DNA of 43,281 bases from the IMG/VR virus record IMGVR_UViG_2909298281_000002. One strand, given 5' to 3'. Below the pieces are notes generated by a model, which saw nothing but the letters and a program-made list of their open reading frames with translations, did not search any database and was not told the origin of the DNA. This DNA comes from a virus. Its lineage: Duplodnaviria > Heunggongvirae > Uroviricota > Caudoviricetes. The position numbers and the translations under genes were made by a program. Shown piece by piece: positions 2,850 through 40,806 of this stretch (position 1 is the stretch's first letter; each line of letters opens with the position of its first letter).

Positions 2850-3154
2850 TATTTCACCTCTTGCTGTGACATTGTTGAAAAATGGATACCAGCTCGTTGC
2901 TGCCAGACGATCCAACCGAGAGTCATATCCCATGCCATGTATTCGTTATCGCCGTTTTTTGCTCTCCGACGATCTACTAAGTCACCGAAACGCTTTTCCA
3001 TGAATAATTCATAAGATTCGCGTTCATCTGGTTCTACTTCCAGAGATAGGAGTGCGATTTCATAAGCACGGCGCTCAATATCGTCTCGCACGTCAAGGCT
3101 GCTGATACGCTCTTTAATTTCTTTAATCAGTTCTTTGTCGGTAAAAGTGGTCAT
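2849..3154 (-). CDS. hypothetical early-left operon protein (YfdT-like by size and position)
   Basis: 101-aa ORF; ATG at 3154 overlaps the upstream stop; GGAG Shine-Dalgarno upstream. No domain recognised. Confidence 0.7.
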   Translation of the reverse strand: MTTFTDKELIKEIKERISSLDVRDDIERRAYEIALLSLEVEPDERESYELFMEKRFGDLVDRRRAKNGDNEYMAWDMTLGWIVWQQRAGIHFSTMSQQEVK

Positions 3155-3516: not shown

Positions 3517-4043
3517 TTGCGTAACTCCGATAACTCGTTAAAACGTTCCATAAACATCCCGTAGGCATGGCCCGGAGCCAGTGGAATAACTTTGAACATC
3601 TCTGTTGCCGGGATACCTTCCAGTACTGGCCAGAAAGAGCCATCATCAAGCCCGAGATCGCGGCGTTCGGTTGCCAGCATGATGAGATCGGCATATTTCA
3701 CAGGCGTGCTCATAACCGTGGGTAACCCGTATTTCTCACGGATTACGGCGTCTATTTTTTCTTCCATCCGTTTATAGTCAGGAAGAAGGCGTTTCAGCGG
3801 CGCGGGGATGTCCTGGCAATACGCTTCTGTTGCATCATGCATTAACGCTTCAAAAGCAAATTCCTGCGGCACCAGCTGGCTGCAAAGCACCGCATGTTGG
3901 GCGACACTGTAGAAGTGTGAAAGATGACCGGCAAAGCGACAGATATTTGAAAGGGAAACCGCGATATCGTTAATCACGATGTCGTCTTTATTTATCCTGT
4001 CATAATAAAAATGCTTCCCGGAAAAAGTTTTAATAAATGACAT
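3507..4043 (-). CDS. HD-domain phosphohydrolase (YfdR-like)
   Basis: His and His-Asp metal-ligand motifs (FAGHLSHFYSVAQHAV ... MHDATEAY). Start set at the ATG at 4043 (MSFIKTF...), which has GGAG 8–9 nt upstream; the track start at 4073 is a GTG without a ribosome-binding site. Confidence 0.8.
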   Translation of the reverse strand: MSFIKTFSGKHFYYDRINKDDIVINDIAVSLSNICRFAGHLSHFYSVAQHAVLCSQLVPQEFAFEALMHDATEAYCQDIPAPLKRLLPDYKRMEEKIDAVIREKYGLPTVMSTPVKYADLIMLATERRDLGLDDGSFWPVLEGIPATEMFKVIPLAPGHAYGMFMERFNELSELRKCA

Positions 4044-4170: not shown

Positions 4171-4995
4171 TCAGGCGGTGAAAGTACCAATAAAGGTTTC
4201 TACTTTGCTGTCTTTGAATTTCTCAACAAGCAGATCACGAAATTCGTTAGCCATTTCTTCCTGCACCGCCTCCAGCTGAATAATGCGCAGAACCAGTACA
4301 GGACGATCGCCAGTGATAATGCTGAGGCGTAATTTAAATGGACGTTCTTTCAGACCTTCAAACGGAACGCATTTAAATTCAAATGCCACTGGCATAATAT
4401 CTTTGGTTTTCGCTTCGACAGACTCCATCAGGGAGCGTTTGCCGCTGAAGTCATTATCTTCAAAATCAGCGGTCTGGTTTGCTTCAATCGTGATTTTACG
4501 GACAGCCGCAGCCGCTTTTGTTGCCTGAATAGCGTCACCATTAGCATCAAAGCCCACAAGGTAGTCGGCCCAGTCTTCAATCCATTCTGCCAGTGACTTC
4601 TGGGAATGACGCTCGCCATTAACAGACAACAGAGCAGAGAACGGTGCTGTCTTTTTCAGTTTGAGAGTGGCGGTGTTATCTGCGTGACCTGGTTCATCAA
4701 TAGTACCCAGGTTAAGCACACTGACGGCTCGCATATTATCGGCATCGATAAAGCAGCGGGTGCCTTCATCTGCAAGATCTTTAGAATAACGGGTAAAGTC
4801 ATCGATGCTGGCAGTGGAAAGCGCACCACGGAAACGGAAGCGATTTAAATTAAATTTTTCCAGATCATGAATGCGGAAATTCTCAGGCAATGCCACAGCA
4901 TCGGCACCAATCTTACTGATAATTTCATTAACACCCTGAGCAGAAATAAGAGCATGGATTTGATTAATTGCGGTTGCGTCTAAGTTCTGAGACAT
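4171..4995 (-). CDS. DUF2303-family protein (YfdQ-like)
   Basis: 274-aa ORF beginning [20 protein letters not shown], matching E. coli CPS-53 YfdQ in length and sequence as recalled; GAGGA Shine-Dalgarno 8 nt upstream. Confidence 0.85.
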
Positions 4996-5060
4996 AATAA
5001 GTCCTCACTATATAAAGATATTCAGTGATGAGATAAATAATCAGTTAATTAAGAACGATA

Positions 5061-5423
5061 TTAATGACCTGCTGCGCGAAGTTTTCCGTCAGGTTCACCG
5101 GCAAGAGTCAGTAATTGTCCCTGGTCTTCCTGCAGAATAGTCAGGCGACCACCGCGATTGACATACATCGGCGTTTCGGTGGTGTCTTCTTCAGAAATTT
5201 TCCCGCGGTTAGTCGGGCGAACATATGAGAGTTTGTGTTTGATTTTCACACGGTTCTCATCAAACGGTTCGATTTCCAGGTTGAGCGAGACCTTACCTTT
5301 GGTTTTCGTGTTCATCACACCGGAAGCGACTTCACTGAGAACAGCGCCGATTTTGGTTTCAAATACGCCGCCGTCCAGCTCCCCGATAAATGCCTGCACA
5401 TCAGTACTGCGTTCGCTAGCCAT
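5061..5423 (-). CDS. YfdP-like phage protein
   Basis: 120-aa product from the third in-frame ATG (MASERSTDVQAFIGELDGG...), which has a GAGGAG Shine-Dalgarno 8 nt upstream. The track ORF (to 5654) starts at a TTG and runs through structured leader sequence. Confidence 0.75.
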   Translation of the reverse strand: MASERSTDVQAFIGELDGGVFETKIGAVLSEVASGVMNTKTKGKVSLNLEIEPFDENRVKIKHKLSYVRPTNRGKISEEDTTETPMYVNRGGRLTILQEDQGQLLTLAGEPDGKLRAAGH

Positions 5424-6014
5424 TTTGCTGCTCCTCATCATATCGACCCTGCAAGGTCGGTTGGTTTCTCCACAAAACAGAGAAGAACACCTGCGGTGAC
5501 TGCCGCCCGGATGGATTGGGTTATGAGCCCGTCGTCCGGTGATGCTCTTCTCTGTTTTGTAAAAAGAGCGGTACCAGCCGGAAGCAAGGGTACAAACTGG
5601 TACCGCCAAAGCAGTGGCTGTTGTGGTGGGGTTGTCACTCAGGCGTATGGTCAACCTGACAATCCGGTGTCCTCAACGGGGAAAGAGTAACCCCGCCATA
5701 CTTACCGCCGCGCCATTTCGCGGATTACCACAACGCTGAGAGCACTTAGCCAGTTACGGCACCACACTTTGTCGCGGCTCCATAAATGCCCTCATCGTTG
5801 CACCCTGGTCTCTTCCCAGGCGTCAAACCGAATCGCCACGCTGGTTAGGCGTCTTATCAGCATCATCATTGACTTGCACATTCCGGCTACCTGGTTTGTT
5901 TGCTCGAGCAAGGAGTGGATTGTCCCCTTTAACGTCACCAGACCGCTAACGACGCATGTGCCATACGCCGTGTTACAACCAAATTTTGTTTTAATCTTGC
6001 CTGTGTTGTGTTTC

Positions 6015-6056
6015 TTTTAGATACATTATGTATCTCATGGGTACATTGTCAAGTAT
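6015..6056 (-). promoter_or_regulatory. candidate PL-like early-left promoter with overlapping operator palindromes
   Basis: On the minus strand: TTGACA (plus 6047–6052), 17-nt spacer, ATAATG (plus 6024–6029). Overlapped by the palindrome GATACATAATGTATC and a GTACA half-site also present in the cI–cro intergenic region. Confidence 0.45.
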
Positions 6057-6080
6057 AAAAAAACCTGCCGAAGCAGGTTC
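6056..6080 (-). terminator. rho-independent terminator downstream of cI
   Basis: Minus-strand hairpin AACCTGC-ttcg-GCAGGTT followed by a run of seven T, starting 12 nt after the cI stop. Confidence 0.6.
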
Positions 6081-6091
6081 ATAAATATTGA

Positions 6092-6766
6092 TTAGGCCTT
6101 TATTGTGTATCTTCTTGGTTTTCCCGAGAAAATCACTGTACCAATTATAGAGCAATTACCGTTAATCTTAATGTAAGGCTCAGGCCAGTTTGGGTTTAAT
6201 GCTTTGAGATAACGCTGTGTTCCATCTTCTATCAATCGCTTGAAGGTGGTTTCGCCTGTATCGTGCATCAATGCAATAACGTCGTCACCGTGGCAGGCAG
6301 GGACTTCGGGATCAACAAAAATCATGTCTCCAGGGCGGTACTCATCAATCATTGAATCACCAATCACCCGCAAGATATAAGTCATTTCGCCACAGGGTAC
6401 AGGGCAGGGGTACGTTTCTGCTGTGCTCAAATCAACCTCAGAATAGCCAACTTCTTTCCATGCTCCGGCCTGTACCCATGATATGACAGGGACTAACGTT
6501 ATTTGTTTGTTAGTGATTGAAACATCAGGTTTTTTTGTGATGTTCGTTGTCTGGTGTTCTTGATCAAGCCATCCGACAGGCAGGTCGAAACATTTTTCGA
6601 TGTGCCGTGCCATGCTGTCACCGATATTTTTAGTAGCGCCATCCCCCATAAACCTGCTGGTTTGGGTTGGCTCGCGATCAATCATGGTGGCAAAGGATGA
6701 ATTTCCGCCAACACCATCTCTCAGTTTTCTGGCGTTAGACCGCCGGATGTCATGGATTGTTTTCAT
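6092..6766 (-). CDS. cI: CI-type prophage repressor (HTH domain plus LexA-like S24 autopeptidase domain)
   Basis: 224 aa; N-terminal helix-turn-helix; Ala-Gly cleavage site (VQAGAWKE); Ser nucleophile in GDSM and a downstream Lys (TFKRL); divergent from cro across an operator-rich intergenic region; no Shine-Dalgarno, consistent with a leaderless PRM-type message. Confidence 0.9.
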   Translation of the reverse strand: MKTIHDIRRSNARKLRDGVGGNSSFATMIDREPTQTSRFMGDGATKNIGDSMARHIEKCFDLPVGWLDQEHQTTNITKKPDVSITNKQITLVPVISWVQAGAWKEVGYSEVDLSTAETYPCPVPCGEMTYILRVIGDSMIDEYRPGDMIFVDPEVPACHGDDVIALMHDTGETTFKRLIEDGTQRYLKALNPNWPEPYIKINGNCSIIGTVIFSGKPRRYTIKA

Positions 6767-7088: not shown

Positions 7089-7652
7089 ATGAGGCTAACC
7101 GTGGGTAAGTATCACTGGAAAGTAGAAAAACAGCCTGAGTGGTACGTGAAAGCTGTCAGAAAAACTATCGCAGCGTTGCCGGGTGGTTACGCTGAAGCAG
7201 CTGACTGGCTGGATGTAACAGAGAACGCATTATTTAACCGCCTTCGTGCCGATGGCGATCAGATTTTCCCGCTGGGATGGGCAATGGTTTTACAGCGCGC
7301 GGCTGGCACTCACTACATTGCGGATGCTGTCGCACAGTCTGCTGGTGGGGTGTTCGTATCGCTTCCTGAAATTGAGGAAGTAGAGAACGCCGATATAAAC
7401 CAGCGCCTGCTGGAAGTCATCGAACAGATCGGGAATTACTCAAAGCAGATTCGTTCGGCAATCGAAGATGGGGTCGTGGAGCCACACGAGCAGACAGCAA
7501 TTAATGATGAGTTGTATCTGTCAATTTCGAAGCTCCAAGAGCATGCAGCACTGGTCTACAAAATCTTTTGCGCTCCAGAAAAGAGTGACGCCCGCGAGTG
7601 TGCAGCTCCGGGCGTCGTGGCGTTTTGTGTCTGTGGAGAAACTAACGCATGA
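7089..7652 (+). CDS. early regulatory protein in the cII position (possibly YdaT/CII-like)
   Basis: 187-aa ORF directly after cro; family assignment is by position and weak recall only. Alternative GTG start at 7101 has a better Shine-Dalgarno (GAGG). Confidence 0.65.
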   Translation: MRLTVGKYHWKVEKQPEWYVKAVRKTIAALPGGYAEAADWLDVTENALFNRLRADGDQIFPLGWAMVLQRAAGTHYIADAVAQSAGGVFVSLPEIEEVENADINQRLLEVIEQIGNYSKQIRSAIEDGVVEPHEQTAINDELYLSISKLQEHAALVYKIFCAPEKSDARECAAPGVVAFCVCGETNA

Positions 7653-8485
7653 ACAGTTTAACGGCAAATAACCGTTTGTCGCAACAGCTGGTGGTCAGCG
7701 TCGCTGAACACCTGTTGTTACGGCATGAATGCAGATTACCAAATCACCTGGCTGTAAGTAACCACAGAGAACTTTACCTGACTGTGGGGGGCGAGTTGTG
7801 CAGGAACTTAACCGCTGGTTTAGTGACGGAAGAGGACTTTATGTTCATGTTATTCGTTGGGAGCCAGAAACACAGCGCGTTATCTATCTTCGCAAAGACT
7901 ACCCGCATGAGTGCTTTAGTCCTTTGTGGAAATTCAGGCGTGATTTTATTGAGTGTGAAGGACCACCAGCACATTGATTCTGCCATTCCGGGACGTTACA
8001 CTGTTCAGGCACCTTATAAAGCGGGTGCCGGGATTGGCGTCCTGGAATTGATCAAGGCGATATATGACGCGCCAGCGTCTTTTTTATCGTCCGCATTTGC
8101 TCACATCAAAGTTATGGTGGGCTGGGCGGGGGCATCGAAAGATGCGCCGGTTTCCTTGATCACCGGTTACGCCAACCCCGTTCAGTTCACCACCAGCGAA
8201 ATTGGCGTTTCCGGTGGTGGAAGTATTTCACCGATCAAGGAGGCTGCCATCATGGCTACTGTCCCAGCCCTCACTCGTCTGAATGATGAAGACTTACATA
8301 AACTCAGTTATGTAACAACAGCACTACGTGCTCTGCGCAAGGTAACTCTTTCAGATCCGCAGGCGCATCAACTTCTGGTAGAAACCCTTCTTAACTTGCA
8401 GGCTGAACGTATTCGTTTGGCGGATAAGGCTAATCTTCATATTCACCGTCTCCTGAATATCAGCGGAGGGCATCGTCATGCTTAA
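7649..8485 (+). CDS. hypothetical replication-region protein
   Basis: 278-aa ORF; ATG overlaps the upstream stop (ATGA), indicating translational coupling; no motif recognised. Confidence 0.65.
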   Translation: MNSLTANNRLSQQLVVSVAEHLLLRHECRLPNHLAVSNHRELYLTVGGELCRNLTAGLVTEEDFMFMLFVGSQKHSALSIFAKTTRMSALVLCGNSGVILLSVKDHQHIDSAIPGRYTVQAPYKAGAGIGVLELIKAIYDAPASFLSSAFAHIKVMVGWAGASKDAPVSLITGYANPVQFTTSEIGVSGGGSISPIKEAAIMATVPALTRLNDEDLHKLSYVTTALRALRKVTLSDPQAHQLLVETLLNLQAERIRLADKANLHIHRLLNISGGHRHA

Positions 8486-12546: not shown

Positions 12547-12575
12547 TTTTGTGGAGAATTTTGTGGAGAAGGTTG

Positions 12576-12926
12576 ATGCGTGATATGTATGAAGTATTGG
12601 ACCTCTGGGGAGCATGGGCTGCAGCAGATAACAGTGGTGTGGACTGGCAGCCTGTTGCTGCAGGGTTTAAAGGTTTACTACCTCATGGAAAGAAAACACG
12701 CCAACAATGCGATGATGATGAAGGAATCATGATTGACAGCTGTGTTGCGCGATTGCGGAAATATAAGCCAGAAGAATATGAACTGATCATTGCTCACTTT
12801 GTTATCGGTATTTCACTCCGTTCAATAGCAAAGAAACGGAAATGCTCTGACGGGTCAATCAGAAAACAACTTCAAGCAGCAATAGGAGTGATTGAAGGTA
12901 TTTTGTTGATTATTAAGCCCCTGTAG
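12576..12926 (+). CDS. late-gene antiterminator Q (QuuD-like)
   Basis: 116 aa from the ATG at 12576 (GGAGAAGG Shine-Dalgarno); LDLWGAWAAADNSGVDWQPVAAGFKGL...CDDDEG pattern matches the DLP12 QuuD-type family as recalled. Confidence 0.85.
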   Translation: MRDMYEVLDLWGAWAAADNSGVDWQPVAAGFKGLLPHGKKTRQQCDDDEGIMIDSCVARLRKYKPEEYELIIAHFVIGISLRSIAKKRKCSDGSIRKQLQAAIGVIEGILLIIKPL

Positions 12927-39800: not shown

Positions 39801-40225
39801 CATCGTTTGATTACGGCACTAAATCCACGAATAACACTGGTGCGCATACTCATAGTTTAAGTGGCAGCACGAATGCAGCTGGTAATCACAGCCATAGAGA
39901 TGGCCGTCGATTTAACCCCAGTGTTTTTAAAGATACTTATCAATATGGTTATACAAGCTCAGGTCAAAATACCTGGGGTGTACAAGGCTCAGTAGGTATG
40001 TCTACGGGGTGGTTAGCTAATACCAGTACAGATGGTAATCATAGCCACTCACTGTCCGGCACAGCAGCATCTGCAGGTGCACACGCGCATACTGTCGGTA
40101 TTGGTGCTCATACGCACTCCGTTGCGATTGGTTCACATGGACACACCATCACCGTTAACGCTGCTGGTAATGCGGAAAACACCGTCAAAAACATCGCATT
40201 TAACTATATTGTGAGGCTTGCATAA
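36827..40225 (+). CDS. stf: side tail fibre protein Stf
   Basis: 1132 aa from the ATG at 36827; N-terminus matches lambda Stf ([37 protein letters not shown]); long Ala/Ser-rich repetitive shaft; C-terminus with repeated His-x-His boxes (GAHTHS, GNHSHS, GAHAHT, GSHGHT) ending ...[11 protein letters not shown]. Confidence 0.9.
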
Positions 40226-40806
40226 TGGCATTCAGAATGAGTGAACAACCACGGACCATAAAAATTTATAATCTGCTGGTCGGGACTAATGAATTTATTG
40301 GTGAAGGTGACGCATATATTCCGCCTCATACAGGTCTGCCAGCAAACAGTACCGATATTGCACCGCCAGATATTCCGGCAGGCTTCGTGGCTGTTTTCAA
40401 CAGTGATGAGGCATCGTGGCATCTCGTTGAAGATCATCGGGGTAAAACGGTTTATGACGTGGCTTCCGGCGACGCGTTATTTATTTCTGAACTCGGTCCG
40501 TTACCGGAAAATGTTACCTGGTTATCGCCGGGAGGGGAATATCAGAAGTGGAACGGCACAGCCTGGGTGAAGGATACGGAAGCAGAAAAACTGTTCCGGA
40601 TCCGGGAGGCGGAAGAAACAAAAAACAGCCTGATGCAGGCAGCGAATGAGCATATTGCGCCACTTCAGGATGCTGTAGATCTGGAAATCGCAACGGAGGA
40701 AGAAATCTCGTTGCTGGAAGCATGGAAAAAGTATCGGGTATTGCTGAACCGTGTTAATACAACAACTGCACCGGATATTGAATGGCCAGTAGCACCTATA
40801 GGGTAA
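40225..40806 (+). CDS. tfa: tail fibre assembly protein Tfa
   Basis: 193 aa, near-identical to lambda Tfa ([77 protein letters not shown]); ATG overlaps the stf stop. Confidence 0.95.

Follow-up and report, generated by a model that had tools for sequence, protein, structure and literature searches.

A probable small-RNA cassette related to DicF and sRNA-17 in the modular early-left leader of a lambdoid prophage

The window studied here, 43,281 nucleotides (nt) of viral DNA (Caudoviricetes; IMG/VR record IMGVR_UViG_2909298281_000002), is a lambdoid prophage integrated beside tRNA-Thr (1369-1444). Its early-left operon opens with a leader (5424-6015), and this interval consists of several RNA modules in a row, each folding independently, rather than of one element. 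We consider it probable, at about 0.6, that the leader is a cassette driven by the early-left promoter PL which yields a stable RNA of ~173 nt, and that a probable RNase III hairpin separates it from the first gene, yfdP. A first-pass annotation had singled out the leader for a perfect 15-bp inverted repeat, which is only one of at least five structured elements. A small RNA (sRNA), one of the readings it had offered for the repeat, does exist in the leader, although it is not the repeat itself: this unit (5734-5562) has its homologues in the 5' domain of long DicF and the 3' part of sRNA-17 and, judged from its sequence, is a chimera of that domain with the sRNA-17 hairpin. The sRNA unit and the hairpin behind it are composed as follows.

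5562-5734, minus strand: predicted stable 173-nt RNA made up of module B, a linker and the terminator hairpin; corresponds to sRNA-17 (193 nt) and long DicF (190 nt)
5620-5734, minus strand: module B, a four-way junction with pseudoknot; homologue of the 5' domain in long DicF (190 nt)
5734-5727/5627-5620, minus strand: closing helix P1 of module B, GUUGUGGU/ACCACAAC
5723-5719/5712-5708, minus strand: hairpin P2 of module B
5701-5696/5650-5645, minus strand: pseudoknot P3 of module B, pairing the P2-P4 linker with the P5 loop
5695-5691/5681-5677, minus strand: hypervariable hairpin P4 of module B
5664-5657/5637-5630, minus strand: hairpin P5 of module B
5707-5704/5668-5665, minus strand: possible 4-bp helix P6 of module B
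5561-5607, minus strand: intrinsic-terminator hairpin GGCGGUACCAG...CUGGUACCGCU followed by U5; 3' part of sRNA-17, in the position of DicF
5472-5560, minus strand: module A, an 89-nt hairpin with a 20-bp basal stem that includes the 15-bp repeat, and a conserved apical sequence

The ends of the predicted RNA follow those of two relatives. sRNA-17 of E. coli K1 RS218, 193 nt long and located in an mEp460-like prophage, was detected by Northern blot and its ends were mapped by 5'/3' rapid amplification of cDNA ends (RACE) (PMC7719688). In phage mEp460, the stretch from GTTGTGG, the 5' strand of helix P1, to the terminator tail CTCTTTT measures exactly 193 nt, and since this equals the RACE-mapped length, the RNA extends from the closing helix to the terminator. 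The 3' hairpin and its linker recur in our sequence: the alignment in the supplement of the sRNA-17 study, mEp460 and the window all carry CACCACAACAGCCACTGCTTTGGCGGTACCAGTTTGTAC(C/A)CTTGCTTCCGGCTGGTACCGCTCTTTT. For the Qin prophage, a 190-nt DicF species with an RNase III-dependent 5' end was described (PMC10448788). It spans the homologue of module B plus DicF, and its 5' end, counted back from the terminator, falls within a few nt of the first base of helix P1. This homologue lies at 3001-3107 of Qin (L001), directly 5' of dicF; module B occupies the corresponding place, that of a 5' domain in an early operon.

The fold of module B was examined in an alignment of 77 distinct sequences, taken from a phage collection and from a pattern scan of viral contigs and including the ban leader of phages P1 and P7. 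In it, 95.4% of the cells were paired, as against 31-56% when the partners were slid. Ten pairs changed on both sides, and the covariation score was reached in none of 500 shuffles. The stem of P4 was fully different between lineages, yet it remained paired. The minimum free energy (MFE) fold of the window sequence recovered P1, P2, P4 and P6; this method cannot predict a pseudoknot. The MFE choice of a local hairpin UCAGG/CCUGA was rejected, as it is not kept in Qin and phage P1, which keep P5 and P3 instead, and an alternative pairing GCGGGGUU/AACCCCGC was not kept in these two either. The loop of P4 (5682-5690, minus strand; alignment columns 49-61) is pyrimidine-rich and CUCCU-like, an anti-Shine-Dalgarno-like motif. 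It was kept as ACUCUUU, AUUCCUU, UUCCUCCAUU or GACUCCUU in lineages with wholly different stems, which suggests a pairing or binding function of that loop.

In the ban operon of phages P1 and P7, module B begins ~35 nt after the C1-controlled promoter, by an annotated 'dicF-like region'. Scanning 596 Gb of contigs with a pattern of 15 specified bases gave nearly exclusively chance matches; among the matches listed, one was a true locus, from E. albertii (L024). The Rfam scan that had been suggested for the leader returned nothing at gathering or permissive thresholds (E up to 10), be it for module B, C, L or A.

A terminator accompanied nearly all copies of module B: 86 of the 87 unique ones were followed by a hairpin and T-run 34-87 nt later (median 69), and 24 different hairpins were found in this position. 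The hairpin of the window, with a ΔG of −20.7 kcal/mol, ranks among the strongest of the 24; the value for DicF is −15.1 kcal/mol. The terminator tail CGCUCUUUUUACAA (5558-5571, minus strand) resembles boxA (lambda CGCUCUUA, rrn GCUCUUUAACAA). We rejected a boxA/nut reading of this motif, and its likeness to boxA is probably due to chance, because it is not conserved in F1055, L160 and L281.

Module B itself proved to be exchangeable. The slot bounded by the conserved linker AGUGCUCUCAGC and the closing helix GUUGUGG/CCACAAC is filled differently from phage to phage. The window carries module B there; mEp460, like many prophages, has a domain of ~134 nt; the prophage of E. coli T-HYM1 (L352) has one that is STnc100-like; P1-like contigs have yet another; and phiV10-like phages contain a genuine tRNA-Arg(UCU), after which comes a DicF-like terminator sRNA. 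The entire unit of L352 scored 39 bits (E = 3.5e-6) against full-length Rfam STnc100, below the 47-bit threshold. Behind the linker, GUUGUGG/CCACAAC aligns with the start of the tRNA-Arg(UCU) of phiV10-like phages as a 7-bp helix of the acceptor type, and T-arm-like remnants occur in some related leaders. Because the slot holds module B, other domains or a tRNA, the region looks like the derivative of a phage tRNA array that exchanges helix-closed units. In one phiV10-like prophage (L002), tRNA-Arg(UCU) is immediately followed, at 2845-2925 on the minus strand, by an unannotated DicF-like sRNA, CCAGAAGUUCCAGGUGCUUGGCGGUGAUGG...CACCGUCCUUUUUU, that has a terminator of its own; module C, the tRNA and the DicF-like hairpin stand there in this order, between the genes for terminase and portal. 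In L352 (2269-2881), modules C and B are replaced by an opposite-strand gene of the ECs1072 family and a small open reading frame (ORF), and this swap marks the PL-proximal leader as an insertion hot spot for RNA and protein accessory cassettes.

The mosaic character was also apparent from the distribution of the leader. When compared by megablast with 5,426 complete E. coli genomes, the 592-nt leader split into blocks of very different distribution: at least 80% of it was covered in 1,102 genomes, and some part was matched in 4,796. The part matched in E. coli K-12, as in the majority of the sampled records of lower rank, was a block of ~107 nt (5628-5734), which K-12 carries in Qin between ydfC and dicB, directly 5' of dicF. 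A second block, 5728-5971, appeared again in phiV10/epsilon15-like prophages, where a tRNA-Arg gene follows directly. Over its full length, the leader shows 97-99% identity to that of the phages cdtI, Ayreon and 2H10 and of several Stx2c-converting phages, all free-living or induced, and ~89% to that of mEp460.

The inverted repeat forms the foot of module A. As reported, ACAAAACAGAGAAGA (5472-5486) is perfectly complementary to TCTTCTCTGTTTTGT (5546-5560). The pairing extends to 25 nt at 84%. No other perfect inverted repeat of at least 15 bp with a loop of at most 100 nt was present in the window, and 100 dinucleotide-preserving shuffles contained none that was comparable. The spacing of 59 nt between the arms was also correct, but the interior is not the plain GC-rich loop described, since it is itself folded and its sequence is conserved. 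As minus-strand RNA, the 89 nt of module A fold at −45.5 kcal/mol (z = −8.3). The basal 20 bp were paired across 14 variants, with compensatory changes in pair 4 (A-U to C-G), pair 11 (G-C to A-U) and pair 16 (G-U to G-C or A-U), and the apical sequence CGACGGGCUCAUAACCCAAUCC was conserved. Module A stands directly 3' of the terminator despite a different next gene (yfdP here, an rdgC-like gene in F1055, another one in L160). Because it keeps its place beside the terminator while the downstream gene differs, it belongs functionally with the sRNA unit. It possesses the conserved double-stranded stem of ~20 bp or more of an RNase III hairpin. An RNase III site was the best-fitting of the readings put forward for the repeat, given the 20-bp stem, the compensatory changes and the constant location 3' of the sRNA terminator; the stem is most likely an RNase III-type processing site, at which cleavage would occur.

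The remainder of the leader and its surroundings define the transcript in which the sRNA unit is embedded. Further elements are listed here.

6025-6052, minus strand: PL-like sigma-70 promoter, TTGACA-16-CATAAT (11/12 match), predicted transcript start at ~6018
5871-5969, minus strand: hairpin I of module C, long and irregular, containing GTTA-N13-GTTA; 26 pairs (helices 1-6), 95-100% of cells paired per helix, mostly invariant
5838-5852, minus strand: hairpin II of module C, stem ACGC/GCGU, conserved loop C/U-U-A/C-ACCA; changes on both sides in 3 of 4 pairs (helix 7)
5804-5820, minus strand: hairpin III of module C, stem CCUG/CAGG, conserved loop GGAAGAG; changes on both sides in 3 of 4 pairs (helix 8), for example CG 16 times and GC 12 times
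5738-5793, minus strand: linker hairpin L, GAGGGCAU (5793-5786) with GUGCUCUC (5745-5738), directly before the slot; changes on both sides in 4 of 8 pairs (helix 9)
5444-5459, minus strand: small hairpin CGACC...GGUCG, shortly before the ribosome-binding site of yfdP; its stem is altered yet paired in F1055 and L160
5421-5436, minus strand: GAGGAG Shine-Dalgarno sequence (5436-5431) and ATG (5423-5421) of yfdP, the first early-left gene

With a PL-like promoter sitting just upstream, 5424-6015 is taken as the transcribed early-left leader, ~595 nt on the minus strand. The promoter had rightly been placed next to the cI-like gene: it has the ymfK terminator (6061-6080) on one side and the leader on the other. 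To the right of the leader follow ymfK itself, which encodes a LexA-family cI-like repressor (6092-6766, minus strand), a cro-like gene, a CII-like gene and, farther away, the gene for the Q antiterminator (12549-12926). Leftward on the minus strand run the early-left genes yfdP (ATG at 5423), yfdQ, yfdR, yfdT, a helix-turn-helix gene and the integrase gene. The transcript thus reads promoter, A-rich 5' end, C, L, B, short linker, terminator hairpin, A, small hairpin, and Shine-Dalgarno sequence with ATG of yfdP. The entire leader folds at z = −4.5. The only tRNA that ARAGORN and Rfam found in the window was tRNA-Thr.

Other traits ascribed to the interval were borne out as well. It is somewhat GC-rich (0.51-0.56, as compared with ~0.45 in the surroundings), and none of its ORFs is conserved. 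The sole sizeable one on the minus strand lies in module C (5792-5938, GTG start) and decays in relatives; a protein-coding reading was rejected because the start codon is lost in near-identical relatives and frameshifts and stops appear in distant ones. A search for N, which was not exhaustive, revealed neither an N-like gene among the scanned early genes nor a conserved N-like ORF in the leader. Conservation and covariation, on which the first-pass annotation had made its structural reading depend, were both present.

Modules C and L were aligned over 28 diverse sequences from lambdoid, P1-like (between tRNA-Ile/Met and ban) and phiV10-like phages. Here, 98% of the cells were paired, compared with at most 43% for slid partners; 13 pairs changed on both sides, and all five measures lay above each of 500 shuffles. 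Hairpin I was nearly invariant among the three kinds of phage. Linker hairpin L folded at z = −2.85; the fold of the small hairpin at 5444-5459 was not significant by itself. Module C adjoins tRNA genes in P1-like and phiV10-like phages, and in phage P1 it lies ~2.3 kb downstream of the promoter, directly before ban. In Qin, an equivalent 10-bp helix (AAGCGCAUGG/CCGUGCGCUU, found by eye) is located just upstream of helix P1 and could be the RNase III substrate from which the 5' end of long DicF is made.

Within hairpin I, we noted an ArcA-type direct repeat, GTTAGCGGTCTGGTGACGTTA (GTTA-N13-GTTA; 5950-5930, minus strand). This kind of motif was used to predict ArcA binding upstream of sRNA-17 (PMC7719688), and the repeat may correspond to the 'ArcA site in the sRNA-17 promoter' of that study. 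A promoter role is doubtful because the repeat lies ~200 nt upstream of the RNA 5' end. Two further observations concern phage P1 (L005): at 4960-5056, UUUUCUGGUGAUGAC after module C resembles the 5' seed of DicF, UUUCUGGUGACG, directly before the ban ribosome-binding site, and at 3842-3961, upstream of tciA, there is a sub-threshold STnc100-like match.

From these elements we propose the following course of events. After repressor loss, or by leaky PL activity in the lysogen, transcription from PL would mostly stop at the terminator at 5607-5561. The upstream RNA would then be cut at the foot of the closing helix, releasing the stable ~173-nt RNA, which may act in trans on host mRNAs by analogy with long DicF, sRNA-17 and STnc100. 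Polymerases reading through the terminator, for which partial read-through is the simplest assumption, would transcribe module A. Cleavage in module A would separate the sRNA from the yfdP-to-int mRNA and could set the 5' end, stability or translation of this mRNA, in the manner of the N leader of lambda. Modules C and L may take part in precursor folding or processing, or may shield the untranslated leader from Rho. What the data show is the anatomy, the homology, the covariation, the association of module B with a terminator and, for two relatives, the RNA ends determined by experiment. Processing in this phage, the action of RNase III at module A and the trans function with its targets are the steps that we infer.

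Several points weigh against this account. The data on expression and RNA ends come from relatives and not from this exact chimera. The authors of the sRNA-17 study list such copies as 'degenerative sRNA-17' and attribute the expression of sRNA-17 to its own ArcA-regulated promoter, not to PL (PMC7719688). The Rfam models of DicF and STnc100 give no match in the window at E up to 10, and the short linker of the window is devoid of the AU-rich site through which RNase E frees the 53-nt DicF. Taken alone, the 173-nt unit folds no better than its shuffles to a significant degree (z = −1.56). In module B, pseudoknot P3 and helix P6 are backed by few independent substitutions: the double changes in P3, P5 and P6 amount to few independent events because they stem mainly from the P1/P7 lineage. 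RNase III cleavage at module A is argued solely from stem length and position. Finally, a terminator of this strength before xis and int implies heavy attenuation or antitermination, which the sRNA account leaves unexplained.

As a tentative alternative, modules B and C, two RNA structures that are absent from Rfam and have covariation support, could be new structured-RNA classes with an active role of their own. Module B occurs in ~88% of complete E. coli genomes, and module C, a domain of ~170 nt, is common to lambdoid, P1-like and phiV10-like phages. They might serve as a handle in the tRNA slot for processing or stabilising exchangeable sRNA payloads, or else as an element directed at polymerase or Rho by which the untranslated leader of 600 nt and its internal terminator can be traversed. 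If true, phage early-operon leaders would be built of exchangeable RNA cassettes (module B, STnc100-like domain, tRNA) in a common closing helix.

A cis-acting antiterminator of the kind of HK022 put, which had been suggested for the repeat region, seems unlikely. Module C, just after PL, and/or module B would bind the transcribing polymerase and let it read through the sRNA terminator and later ones, replacing the missing N. Such an element would suit a phage in which no N-like gene was found despite a strong intrinsic terminator before xis and int. The near-invariance of hairpin I across very different phages would be expected for the partner of a conserved host machine, and in three independent types of operon (this PL, Qin dicB and P1 ban), B and/or C precede terminator-like structures which have to be traversed for expression of the genes behind them. 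However, the leader has no sequence similarity to putL or putR, and a blastn-short comparison with the nun/PL/cI region of HK022 yielded only chance 9-13-mers. HK022 put RNAs, which suppress downstream terminators in cis by way of the zinc-binding domain of the polymerase β' subunit, are likewise promoter-proximal structured RNAs in early operons of a lambdoid phage without N-dependent antitermination, but they are ~70 nt long with two stems (PMC9378689), an architecture unlike that of the modules of 115-190 nt observed here. L352 keeps the terminator, module A and the yfdP operon with C and B replaced by protein-coding inserts and the STnc100-like domain, which means that C and B are not obligatory antiterminators for this operon, and mEp460 has an unrelated domain in place of B. 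Nor does the distance of module C from the promoter in phage P1, directly before ban, suit such an element. In Qin, both terminated and read-through transcripts were seen (PMC10448788), without any claim of antitermination.

We regard it as quite unlikely that B and C, as derivatives of a tRNA array, act as tRNA mimics or decoys against tRNA-targeting defences or recruit tRNA-processing enzymes, with the sRNA hairpin being secondary. Module B does stand in the exact place of tRNA-Arg(UCU) of phiV10-like phages and has an acceptor-like helix of 7-8 bp and four arms, module C is a neighbour of tRNA genes, related leaders retain T-arm-like remnants, and expression from PL would be early. On the other hand, neither ARAGORN nor the Rfam tRNA model recognised B or C in the leader (E up to 10), a 3' CCA is missing, and neither the pseudoknot nor the length of the arms resembles a tRNA. 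In the Qin homologue, formation of the 5' end requires RNase III, and no involvement of RNase P has been reported.

The prospects of a riboswitch are poorer still. Module B would be an aptamer sensing a ligand or factor, and the variable terminator its expression platform controlling entry into the early-left operon. A conserved pseudoknotted junction followed, at a fixed short distance, by a variable but always present terminator would be in line with this. By inspection, however, no conserved antiterminator pairing of module B or the linker with the terminator went beyond 5-6 nt: only GGCGG(UA) of module B could compete for the 3' strand of the terminator. The same slot holds a tRNA or an STnc100-like domain before the same terminator, and in Qin the RNA composed of B and hairpin accumulates stably, which suits an sRNA better than a spent leader.

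That the repeat acts as DNA, be it as the protein-binding palindrome suggested earlier, a cruciform or a recombination site, is hardly credible: its arms are perfect over 15 bp and lie within a mosaic region of cassette exchange, but they are 59 bp apart around a conserved and further folding interior, variants stay paired by compensatory or wobble changes, and the stem continues through G-U pairs, which make sense only in minus-strand RNA and place the pairing at the RNA level.

Other RNA elements were found elsewhere in the window. Rfam isrK (8009-8085, 64 bits) lies beside a C4 antisense RNA (8110-8197, 82 bits) on the plus strand (8009-8197), inside ORF 7649-8485 and upstream of an ash-family gene; mEp460 has the same pair (L248 5175-5363). 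It looks like a module of the P1/P7 immI type (c4-icd-ant) or of the Gifsy-1 IsrK type. In the tail-fibre region (40568-40766, plus strand), a full-length Rfam IS009 RNA (214 bits) overlaps ORF 40225-40806. IS009 often neighbours the prophage sRNA PasB (2026 preprint).

The analysis raises the question of how a lambdoid phage without N passes a strong terminator before its recombination and integration genes. The lambda N/nut system itself, with an arginine-rich N and conserved boxA/boxB, was not found in the leader, nor an N among the early genes scanned. The N leader of lambda nevertheless offers a parallel to module A: it contains a large RNase III hairpin, with a stem of at least 20 bp, in the PL leader, tens of nt upstream of the ribosome-binding site of the first early-left gene. 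The two hairpins are alike in their long stem, their position in the PL leader and their closeness to the ribosome-binding site of the first gene; the setting differs in that no nutL or N system is present here. To our knowledge, they have no sequence relation.

The cassette as a whole is closest in layout to DicF (RF00039; Faubladier 1990; PMC10448788), with which it shares a closed 5' domain, a linker, a GGCGG...CCGCC terminator and a repressor-controlled early operon. Module B is ~92% identical to the stretch that immediately precedes DicF in Qin. For this 5' part of long DicF, which most E. coli genomes contain and to which no role had been assigned, our alignment yields a conserved pseudoknotted fold. 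The terminator stem of the window starts like DicF (UUUGGCGGUAxCAGUUU). By inspection, the 5' seed of DicF, its xylR/pykA pairing region, is absent from the window, its ftsZ-pairing 3' region is absent or different, and the gene downstream is yfdP instead of dicB. The DicF model (gathering threshold 48 bits) found nothing in 5300-6200 even at E up to 10, as compared with 76.7 bits for the Qin control and 30.3 bits for L160, a relative with the same terminator stem. An earlier study found no DicF homologues in phage databases; cassettes of the DicF type do occur in functional temperate phages, namely mEp460, cdtI, Stx2c phages, P1 and phiV10-like phages.

With sRNA-17, the cassette shares the locus, the phage family, the closing helix, the terminator and also the neighbours behind it, module A and yfdP. 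The last 61 nt of sRNA-17, CACCACAAC-AGCCACUGCUUUGGCGGUACCAG...CUGGUACCGCUCUUUU, recur in the window in identical or nearly identical form. The 5' domain of sRNA-17 (GTTGTGGTGAATGCGCAGGC..., STnc100-like, ~134 nt) is replaced by module B, and the window does not contain the full-length 193-nt RNA. Neither the modular structure nor a relation to DicF and STnc100 was described in the sRNA-17 study. STnc100 (RF02076) comprises prophage RNAs of ~200 nt which, as here, consist of a helix-closed 5' domain and a terminator hairpin. Its 5' domain is unrelated in sequence to module B, whereas the STnc100-like domain of L352, below the gathering threshold as stated, fills the same slot before the same terminator. 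STnc100 has been linked to the PasD sRNAs (preprint 10.64898/2026.05.13.724894). We rejected PasA-D as kin of the cassette, given their location in late or structural regions and not in a PL leader.

In the literature searched, there appears to be no description of how module B folds, of modules C, L and A, or of the slot architecture joining DicF, sRNA-17, STnc100 and phage tRNAs. The cassette probably works like DicF, sRNA-17 and STnc100, yet by their covariance models it falls outside the DicF and STnc100 families. DicF, sRNA-17 and STnc100/PasD, so far treated as unrelated prophage sRNAs, share one plan, a helix-closed 5' domain in a fixed slot followed by a terminator hairpin; phages exchange both the 5' domains and the hairpins, and the slot can even be taken by a real tRNA.

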